A stretch of DNA of 64,000 bases, taken from Thermoplasmatota archaeon. GTDB taxonomy: Archaea > Thermoplasmatota > Penumbrarchaeia > Penumbrarchaeales > Penumbrarchaeaceae. The notes below the pieces were generated by a model. The model saw only the letters and a program-made list of their open reading frames with translations, did not search any database and was not told the origin of the DNA. Both the position numbers and the translations under genes were made by a program. Location: contig JARVGK010000006.1 in the NCBI GenBank assembly GCA_029762535.1, positions 14,603 through 78,602 of the forward strand. Direction: 5' to 3'. Shown in pieces: positions 21,546 to 23,125 of the stretch (positions within the stretch are counted from its first letter, which is position 1; the number at the start of each line of letters is the position of its first letter).

Positions 21546-23054
21546 TCATGAGAAGAACAGCTTCTTCGATGCAAAATGGGGATCGCATGTCAAATTGACC
21601 CCAAGCTGGCGCAATCCTTTCTCGTCACCTGGGCTCGGTATATGCGTGAGATGTACCTCGCATCCGGACAACGATTTGAGCTTCTCCATGGCTAGACGTG
21701 CCGTCGGATTGGTCGTTGCGCTCGTGCTTAAAGCTATGAGCGTCTCCTCCAGGTCCAGGCTTATCGCGGGCTGGCCGAGTATGTCCTTCTTCAAGCTCGC
21801 AACGGATCCGATCGTGTTCGGGCTCAAGAGATAGATATGTTTGGGTATACCCGCGAGATGCTTTATGGCGTTCAGCACCAGGCTCGAGGAGGCGTGCATT
21901 AGGGGCGAGTTCTTTCCCTTTATAATGCTGCCGTCCTCGAGTTCCATAGCCGCACCGCAGAATATGCCTCTGTTACCCTCGTTCTTCTCCGCCATAACAG
22001 CGGCTTCCCTTGCCGGGAGGACCACGGATCTGTCCTCCGGCCTGAGATCGAACTCCTCCAGGATGGATGCTGTTCGATCCACCGGTTCTTGATCCCCCGT
22101 ACCCATCGCCGCCTCCGCCGCGTAGCGGAAATACCTCCGCAGGATCTCCTCCTTCGATGCGATCGATGCCGCCCCATCGTCCATTATCGCATACCCGGCC
22201 CTGTTGACCCCCATATCTGTCGGCGATCGGTAGTCGATGTCCTTTTCGGATATGCGCGAGAGTATCCGACGCAGCAGAGGGAACACTTCGACGTCCCTGT
22301 TGTAGCTCACGGCCTTCTCGTTGTATGCCTCGAGGTGGAACGGATCTATCATGTTGACGTCTTTAAGATCCGCGGTCGCAGCCTCATAAGCGATGTTCAC
22401 CGGGTGGCGCAGCGGCAGGTTCCATATGGGGAAGGTCTCGAACTTTGCATATCCTGCTTCGTATCCTCTCTCATGCTCGTGATATATCTGAGACAGGCAG
22501 GTAGCAAGCTTTCCGCTGTTTGGCCCGGGCGCTGTGACCACCACCAGGGGATTGAAGGTCTCGATGTAGGGATTCGCGCCGTAACCATCTTCGCTAACGA
22601 TCCGATTCACATCGGTCGGATAGCCGGGGATCGGGGCGTGGGTGTAAACGTTTATCCCCTGCCTCTCAAGCTTTCTTTTGAACGTGAGGGCGCTCATTTG
22701 CCCCTTGAACCTCGTTATCACCACAGCTGTGATCTCAAGGCCTCTCTCCCGAAGGTCATCGATCATCTTCATAGCGTCGGAGTCGTACGTGATCCCGAAA
22801 TCCGATCGGATCTTCCTGCGCTCTATGTCATCGGCGTATATGCACAGGATGATATCAGCCTCATCCTTAAGCTGCTTGAGAAGACGCACCTTGACGTTGG
22901 GATCGAACCCGGGAAGCACCCTGGACGCATGATAATCGTATAGGAGCTTGCCACCGAATTCGAGATAGAGCTTGTTGTCGAAGCGTTTTGCGCGCTCGAT
23001 GATGGCGGACGATTGCTCTGCGAGGTATTTCTCGTTGTCGAACGCTATTCCCAG
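21546..23054 (-). CDS. DUF1846 (UPF0371) family protein
   Basis: N-terminus GIAFDNEKYL..KLYLEFGGKL lies upstream of the ORF-track start. APGPNSGK, KFETFPIWNLPL, YEAATADL, PTDMGVN. CTG start proposed. Confidence 0.88.
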   Translation of the reverse strand: MGIAFDNEKYLAEQSSAIIERAKRFDNKLYLEFGGKLLYDYHASRVLPGFDPNVKVRLLKQLKDEADIILCIYADDIERRKIRSDFGITYDSDAMKMIDDLRERGLEITAVVITRFKGQMSALTFKRKLERQGINVYTHAPIPGYPTDVNRIVSEDGYGANPYIETFNPLVVVTAPGPNSGKLATCLSQIYHEHERGYEAGYAKFETFPIWNLPLRHPVNIAYEAATADLKDVNMIDPFHLEAYNEKAVSYNRDVEVFPLLRRILSRISEKDIDYRSPTDMGVNRAGYAIMDDGAASIASKEEILRRYFRYAAEAAMGTGDQEPVDRTASILEEFDLRPEDRSVVLPAREAAVMAEKNEGNRGIFCGAAMELEDGSIIKGKNSPLMHASSSLVLNAIKHLAGIPKHIYLLSPNTIGSVASLKKDILGQPAISLDLEETLIALSTSATTNPTARLAMEKLKSLSGCEVHLTHIPSPGDEKGLRQLGVNLTCDPHFASKKLFFS

Positions 23055-23125
23055 TATATGCCCCCGGTACCTCCGTCAGAAAGGACTTGATGGGAGATAA
23101 CTTTTCCTTAAACCACAGTATCATA

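Follow-up and report, generated by a model that had tools for sequence, protein, structure and literature searches.

The 64,000-nt stretch of DNA analysed here (hereafter the window, numbered from its first letter) covers positions 14,603 to 78,602 of contig JARVGK010000006.1 in the Thermoplasmatota genome GCA_029762535.1 (G000, the genome under study, that of an uncultured sediment archaeon), and carries on its minus strand a gene of the DUF1846/UPF0371 family (21546-23057) whose conserved N-terminus precedes any ATG, GTG or TTG codon. The gene appears to be intact and is probably translated from a near-cognate start codon, most likely ATA (23055-23057), with the next codon, CTG (23052-23054), as the alternative. 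Judged from sequence comparison, near-cognate starts of this kind seem to be real, class-wide biology touching about 0.5-1% of genes, neither an assembly artefact nor peculiar to this genome.

On the minus strand, the reading frame runs TGA (23078-23076) CGG AGG TAC CGG GGG CAT ATA (23057-23055) CTG (23054-23052) GGA ATA (23048-23046) GCG TTC GAC AAC GAG AAA TAC and is bounded upstream by this in-frame TGA, after which it stays free of stops for 509 codons, down to the stop at 21546-21548. Counted from ATA, the coding sequence comprises 503 codons plus the stop. The earliest ATG, GTG or TTG in the list of open reading frames (ORFs) is GTG at 22917-22919, 46 codons past ATA and 45 past CTG. The Pfam domain PF08903 matched residues 10 to 342 (model positions 1-332 of 333; 545 bits), residue 10 being the ATA codon at 23048, and the C-terminal domain PF20921 matched residues 347 to 507 (1-153 of 153; 189 bits); PDB entries 3BH1 (E=3e-160) and 7F00 (E=5.5e-152) both matched residues 10 to 507. 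Because Pfam and PDB homology begins at residue 10, the conserved N-terminus lies upstream of any canonical start, and initiation at a canonical codon would therefore cost about 46 conserved, structured residues. A first-pass annotation made from the letters of the window had already placed the family N-terminus ahead of GTG 22919 and the CTG codon 6 nt behind a GGGGG run (23061-23065), and both statements were borne out. The six codons before ATA had a non-coding score (-2.9). Neither an internal stop nor a loss of domains was found, and with the start codon as the sole affected part the gene does not have the features of a pseudogene. The GGGGG run is a candidate Shine-Dalgarno (SD)-like element, able to pair with CCUCC via one G-U, or a +1 slippery site. 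Further upstream, a GGAGGT motif (23069-23074) that had escaped the first-pass annotation matches the complement of the 16S 3' terminus of this genome (GGATCACCTCCT) perfectly over its six bases; 11 nt separate it from ATA (12 nt if only GGAGG is counted).

The start region was compared with that of DUF1846 genes from five genomes, four belonging to the same family (identity 76-80%) and one to the same phylum (47%), none of them of the same genus. These begin with TTG-ACC-GGG-ATC-GCG-TTC in G022 (L002), ATG-GTC-GGG-AAA-GCG-TTC directly after a TGA in G019 (L003), ATG-AAT-AAC-CAG-ATA-GCG in G007, ATG-AGA-TCT-GAA-ATA-GCA directly after a TGA in G014, and ATG-GCC-TCT-GAG-GGA-TTC in G038. When ATA-CTG-GGA-ATA-GCG-TTC was aligned with them, the start codons of the two closest relatives (TTG in G022 and ATG in G019) fell on ATA 23057 and not on CTG 23054. 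The first-pass annotation had favoured CTG, with ATA in brackets; both codons are possible, but ATA is the positional homologue of the start in relatives. A canonical start was present in all 154 evaluable DUF1846 homologues from other genomes and metagenomes, and the non-canonical start is thus a derived state. The distance between the initiator M and the conserved F was 6 in 83 of these homologues, 5 in 19 (the distance given by ATA, and also that of the closest relatives) and 4 in 11 (that given by CTG). The gene shares the two-domain, full-length match with the DUF1846/UPF0371 family, and its closest non-family homologues are bacterial (61-70% identity); it differs in being the only member without a canonical start among about 160 inspected. 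An exact-pattern scan of JGI metagenomes for closer relatives, in which conservation of ATA could be tested, gave no match, and the best identity in a protein-seeded scan was 70%.

The upstream neighbourhood of the gene was also recorded in these genomes. In G022 (contig C209), the upstream gene (C-terminus ...SEHYMFPVGVPWGQGW...) reads in frame into DUF1846 without a stop, so that the open frame extends over 542 aa. The TGA of the same upstream gene abuts the ATG of DUF1846 in G019 and G014. The genome under study has another upstream neighbour, and the spacer is shortened after a shared CGGAGGT.

The DUF1846 gene is not isolated in this respect. We carried out a census of 2,095 stop-to-stop ORFs of this genome with a codon-usage model, searching for coding-like stretches before the first canonical start as well as for SD-led near-cognates. 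At least 11 of these ORFs, a lower bound of about 0.5%, needed an ACG, CTG, ATA or ATC start, usually 6-9 nt behind an SD. Within the window, tgt (57738-58877, plus strand) would start at ATA 57738, separated by 7 nt from GGAGG (57726-57730); its Pfam TGT domain begins 8 residues ahead of the first canonical codon, TTG 57795, and ATA 57738 aligned exactly with the ATG or TTG of five relatives, with GGAGG at the same 7-nt spacing common to all. A gene for an FGE-sulfatase lipoprotein (16367-17113, minus strand) has a candidate CTG start at 17113 behind GGTGAT (17122-17117; aligned spacer of 7), and a full signal peptide, (M)KIQWTLIIAMLIANISGC, is predicted only from this CTG and not from the first canonical codon, ATG 17083. 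The first-pass annotation had counted about four such genes in 64 kb, of which tgt, the lipoprotein gene and DUF1846 stand, whereas xth (39335-40096, minus strand) is ambiguous, with ATC 40096 behind GAGGTGAT (40107-40100) and a canonical alternative, TTG 40150, behind AGGGG.

Outside the window, the Pfam domain starts ahead of the first canonical codon in the genes of an RDD protein (ACG behind GGGGGTGA) and of YjbR (ACG behind AAGGAGG). HflX has ACG behind GAGGTGA where 16 of 16 relatives have ATG, and an MBL hydrolase has CTG behind AGGAGG, without which 111 codons would be lost, including the HEHSDH motif. The start of wecB, either ACG or CTG, precedes the GTRPE motif. Anchoring on reciprocal orthologues added carA (ATC 6 nt behind a G6 run), a Psd-like gene (CTG behind GGGGTGA) and gene a1020, whose ACG aligned with the ATG of its partner. 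An SD of at least 5 nt at the right spacing was present in 9 of the 15 cases found without reference to the SD, compared with 38.5% of ordinary genes; SD-driven choice of near-cognate starts, as the first-pass annotation had proposed under the term RBS (ribosome-binding site)-driven, is on these counts suggestive only. Several candidates were dropped. Canonical starts sufficed in Pfam checks for GcvH, CDC48, YbjQ, an MBL_3 protein, NosD and a GAF kinase; a LeuD-like gene (window 40101-41453) and several others had been flagged merely through a conserved upstream overlapping gene.

Near-cognate starts were also found in relatives. G004, a 97%-complete genome of another genus (g5), was processed with the same pipeline (1.56 Mb; 777 reciprocal best hits with the genome under study) and contained at least 6 near-cognate starts among 1,108 ORFs, in genes other than those of G000. 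Orthologue anchoring gave a similar figure, about 6 of the 777 pairs in each of the two genomes. Three independent assemblies of genus g5 (G004, G010 and G015; 78-94% protein identity) were then compared. ACG was kept in all three species in b457, where it follows GGGTGA and aligns with the ATG of G000, and in the ACLY-like gene b213, where it aligns with ATG. CTG was kept in all three in b50, where it aligns with ATG and follows GGAGGT or GGGGGT, and in b250 (gcvPA). In the wHTH gene b462, ACG was kept in two of the three species and a downstream CTG in all three, and in b454 the CTG of G004, which follows GGAGG with a spacer of 7, corresponds to TTG in G010. Since these codons were kept across three species, they are compatible with long-term function. 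In G015 (contig C139), the orthologue of b50 (1,563 aa) has an in-frame TAG about 10 codons ahead of the CTG, which closes the frame just before the conserved GGAGGT-6 nt-CTG arrangement (spacer 7). No other single locus of the family, in our reading of the sequences, shows so cleanly that CTG is the start.

The closed genome G033, which belongs to another family of the class, was covered over 800 kb and 191 reciprocal pairs, with masked runs of N that inflated the number of candidates. In it, ATT behind GGGGGTGA is the start of a 3-hydroxyacyl-CoA dehydrogenase gene, and ATC behind GGAGGT that of a wHTH gene. This 800-kb section (G033:C1:1-800000) is much AT-richer (42.8% GC), and ATT and ATC take the place of ACG and CTG among its near-cognates; the near-cognate spectrum may track base composition. 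In G000 and G004 combined, the spectrum comprised roughly 7 ACG, 6 CTG and 4 ATA or ATC, which equals the set of codons one transition removed from ATG and TTG, and it resembles the eukaryotic near-cognate hierarchy. The lineage-wide relaxation of starts suggested by the first-pass annotation is therefore upheld in that such starts recur and are kept across species; its extent is smaller (about 0.5-1% of genes, compared with the 6-8% suggested by the window), and it is not special to this genome. Family searches in G000, G004, G030, G033 and G037 gave neither actin nor Vps28 matches, and an Asgard affiliation is accordingly unlikely; the Vps28 search, which was silent in the control genomes too, adds little to this.

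Several observations weigh against translation of DUF1846 from a near-cognate start as part of such a class-wide habit. Among the 973 confident starts of this genome used for spacing statistics, GGAGG usually stands at a spacing of 7-9 nt and GGGGG at one of 6-8 nt, and GGAGG is seldom 12 nt away (4 of 159); with GGAGG 12 nt and GGGGG 3 nt away, the SD geometry of ATA 23057 is awkward, while GGGGG lies 6 nt before CTG, within the usual range, and CTG belongs to the most frequent near-cognates of the family. None of the five relatives, which have ATG or TTG and include no genome of the same genus, shares the non-canonical codon. A bulk test for near-cognates at SD spacers of 7-9 nt ahead of the first canonical start gave 48 observed against about 39 expected, which is not significant, so that the number of genes involved should be in the tens, not hundreds. 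Archaea have been described as using AUG, GUG and UUG, and Sulfolobus aIF1 is reported to reject AUU in vitro (PMC4705826). Also, the rate of near-cognate starts was judged as elevated from literature baselines. Given that homology favours ATA and spacing favours CTG, the assignment of the DUF1846 start is divided: ATA is most likely, CTG is a possible though less favoured choice and any other codon is improbable.

The components of the initiation machinery to which the first-pass annotation had pointed turned out to be ordinary. A single, canonical initiator tRNA is encoded, with A1:U72, three G:C pairs (GGG/CCC) in the anticodon stem and the anticodon CAU, and an initiator-like tRNA with another anticodon was not seen in the search of the genome with aragorn. 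aIF1 and its counterparts in 22 relatives are nearly identical, and its single unique change (I to T in VTTISGI) stays within conservative variation of the family, presumably agrees with the yeast eIF1 sequence and does not look like a Sui-type lesion. We infer that initiation occurs at the near-cognate codons themselves, at lowered efficiency. The ordinary Met-tRNAi (CAU) would read ATA or CTG with one mismatch while the 30S subunit is held by the SD-like GGAGGT or GGGGG just upstream, probably with reduced output; the site would be fixed by the SD and decoded in spite of the mismatch, as in bacterial AUU and AUA starts. DUF1846 is one instance of a habit of the class, in which about 0.5-1% of genes carry ACG, CTG, ATA or ATC (or ATT in its AT-richer member) at the very position of ATG, GTG or TTG in relatives. 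More moderate than mRNA editing, which is considered below, is the reading that SD-led archaeal initiation would tolerate second-position mismatches and that selection may keep ACG and CUG as built-in throttles.

Among the alternatives, it is conceivable, though unlikely, that the start was lost recently through an ATG to ATA change, leaving a young pseudogene that is silent or yields a truncated, probably inactive product of 457 aa from GTG 22919. The canonical starts of the relatives and of the 154 homologues, which make the change lineage-specific, and the poor SD spacing for ATA are compatible with such a loss, but the intact 509-codon frame with its full-length Pfam scores is not what it would leave behind, at least ten other intact genes share this state, HflX, carA and tgt among them, and near-cognate starts were kept across the three g5 species. 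An error of sequencing or assembly, the true base giving ATG at 23057, is rather improbable. A single G-to-A difference in a metagenome-assembled genome would suffice, yet the Logan assembly of SRR24067139, the work of a second assembler on what are probably the same reads, agrees at 100% over 7,374 nt, with both ATA and the G5 run. About 11 altered starts would need roughly 1.6e-3 errors per base, which should produce nonsense codons across the genome, and the same phenomenon recurs in a further four independent assemblies, including a closed one. The first-pass annotation had set the frequency of such starts against the assembly error rate, and on both of these counts error is an unlikely explanation of the near-cognates.

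A +1 frameshift seems very unlikely. In that case translation would start at ATG 23124-23122, another feature missed by the first-pass annotation, which heads an 85-codon ORF in a different frame (22867-23124, minus strand) and lies 1 nt past the TAG (23128-23126) of the upstream gene (23126-23917, minus strand; 263 aa, without a recorded Pfam match), and coupled ribosomes would slip on the G5 run (CCG GGG G), either in a programmed manner or with the run being really G4. One G fewer would fuse this ORF in frame to DUF1846, tRNA-Gly would re-pair perfectly after a +1 slip on GGGGG, and the first 20 codons of the ATG 23124 frame score +4.1; the whole 85-codon ORF, however, scores -54.7 and continues past the run, ATG 23124 has no SD, and the A-site codon would be GCA, neither a stop nor rare. 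The resulting 22-residue extension occurs in no relative, with a TGA standing directly before the ATG in G019 and G014, and the G5 run is retained in the Logan assembly. The least probable of the explanations considered, and a highly improbable one, is that C-to-U editing of the mRNA restores starts as in plant organelles, turning ACG into AUG and CUG into UUG (CUG 23054 included, if it is the DUF1846 start). ACG and CTG account for about 13 of roughly 17 cases in G000 and G004 and would become canonical after one C-to-U change, but the ATA, ATC and ATT starts (tgt, carA, those of G033, and DUF1846 if it starts at ATA) could not be repaired in this way. Nor does the spectrum call for editing, given that CUG and ACG also rank highest among the near-cognates of eukaryote-type initiation. 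To our knowledge, mRNA editing is not known in archaea, and such a case would amount to an organelle-like start-codon editing system never seen in this domain. Translation of an intact DUF1846 gene from ATA or CTG by near-cognate initiation remains, in our view, the likely explanation.

Near-cognate starts have precedents, none of them identical to the situation found here. ATG, GTG and TTG make up 99.95% of annotated starts in model bacteria (about 0.05% being non-canonical), with two non-canonical cases confirmed in E. coli, and near-cognate output is 1-2% in E. coli (10.1101/063800) and about 10% of that of AUG in S. aureus reporters (PMC13009471). The bacterial SD-directed AUA and AUU starts (AUU in E. 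coli infC and pcnB; infC, ccpN and citZ with AUA and cvfC1 with AUU in S. aureus) resemble those described here in having a near-cognate behind an SD and a codon conserved in relatives, as in the ACG and CTG genes of g5, and in the lower output to be expected. They differ in relying on IF3 and not on aIF1/aIF2-type initiation, in numbering two to four per genome against a dozen genes here, and in that ACG is among the commonest codons here and no autoregulatory logic is evident for DUF1846. Eukaryotic initiation by Met-tRNAi at CUG, ACG and GUG has the same CUG/ACG-dominated spectrum and homologous factors (aIF1/eIF1 and aIF2/eIF2; PMC4705826), but in the present genomes the site is set by an SD and not by scanning and Kozak context, and the near-cognates are the sole starts of ordinary genes, not those of upstream ORFs or extensions. 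An archaeal precedent for CTG comes from ribosome profiling of M. mazei, a cultured methanogen, in which CTG starts accounted for 5% of 314 previously unannotated small ORFs (PMC11456600), whereas the genes considered here are long conserved enzymes with ACG, ATA and ATC in addition to CTG. A limited literature search found no report of conserved ACG starts in ordinary archaeal genes.

These starts have consequences for annotation. NCBI translation table 11 does not include ACG as a start codon. Gene finders restricted to ATG, GTG and TTG cut about 46 residues off DUF1846, as illustrated by the Logan gene call, which begins at GTG 22919, and N-termini would be cut or lost in roughly 0.5-1% of the genes of this archaeal class, the MBL hydrolase losing its HEHSDH motif. 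The retention of ACG and CUG starts by several species of an SD-using archaeal group suggests that archaeal start-codon proofreading is looser than the in-vitro assay of Sulfolobus aIF1 implies, and tgt, HflX, carA, the ACLY-like gene and gcvPA form a gene set in which archaeal near-cognate initiation could be tested.

The distribution of the cases along the genome was uneven. Contig C69 (114 kb, 3.8% of the genome), which comprises the window and about 35 kb past its end, carries 5 or 6 of the approximately 11 genes with near-cognate starts, namely those at window positions 17113, 23057, 40096 and 57738, together with wecB and the MBL hydrolase, which lie about 1.7 kb and about 30 kb, respectively, beyond the window end. 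Of the six cases in the unbiased coding-score list, three are on this contig. Many of the near-cognate genes of C69 look like envelope or glycan genes. Mis-binning was considered as the cause of the excess and rejected, the GC content, coding score and orthologue identity of C69 being ordinary.

Some features of the RNA genes were also recorded. In the 54th sequence searched with aragorn, a tRNA-Trp gene of 199 nt (7507-7705) contains one or more long introns; an intron-bearing tRNA-Met(CAT) of 122 nt was also found, and several tRNAs were missed with the intron search off. Two different 16S 3' ends, ...GTATCCGTAGGGGAACCTGCGGATGGATCACCTCCT and ...GTAGCCGTAGGGGAATCTGCGGCTGGATCACCTCCT, are present in G000 on contigs C14 (at about 145.5 kb) and C71, so the assembly either has two rRNA operons or includes a small contig from a contaminant.

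DUF1846 heads a run of genes on the same strand (16367-23075, minus) that continues with a DegT-type aminotransferase, a GFO/IDH/MocA oxidoreductase, a hexapeptide acyltransferase, an NAD-dependent epimerase and the FGE-sulfatase lipoprotein, and this sugar-nucleotide and envelope context may hint at its function. On the plus strand, tgt forms a bacterial-type queA-tgt pair (56660-58877) in this archaeon; the pair is kept across the family and class, and the queA stop codon, TGA (57734-57736), lies 1 nt before the ATA of tgt.

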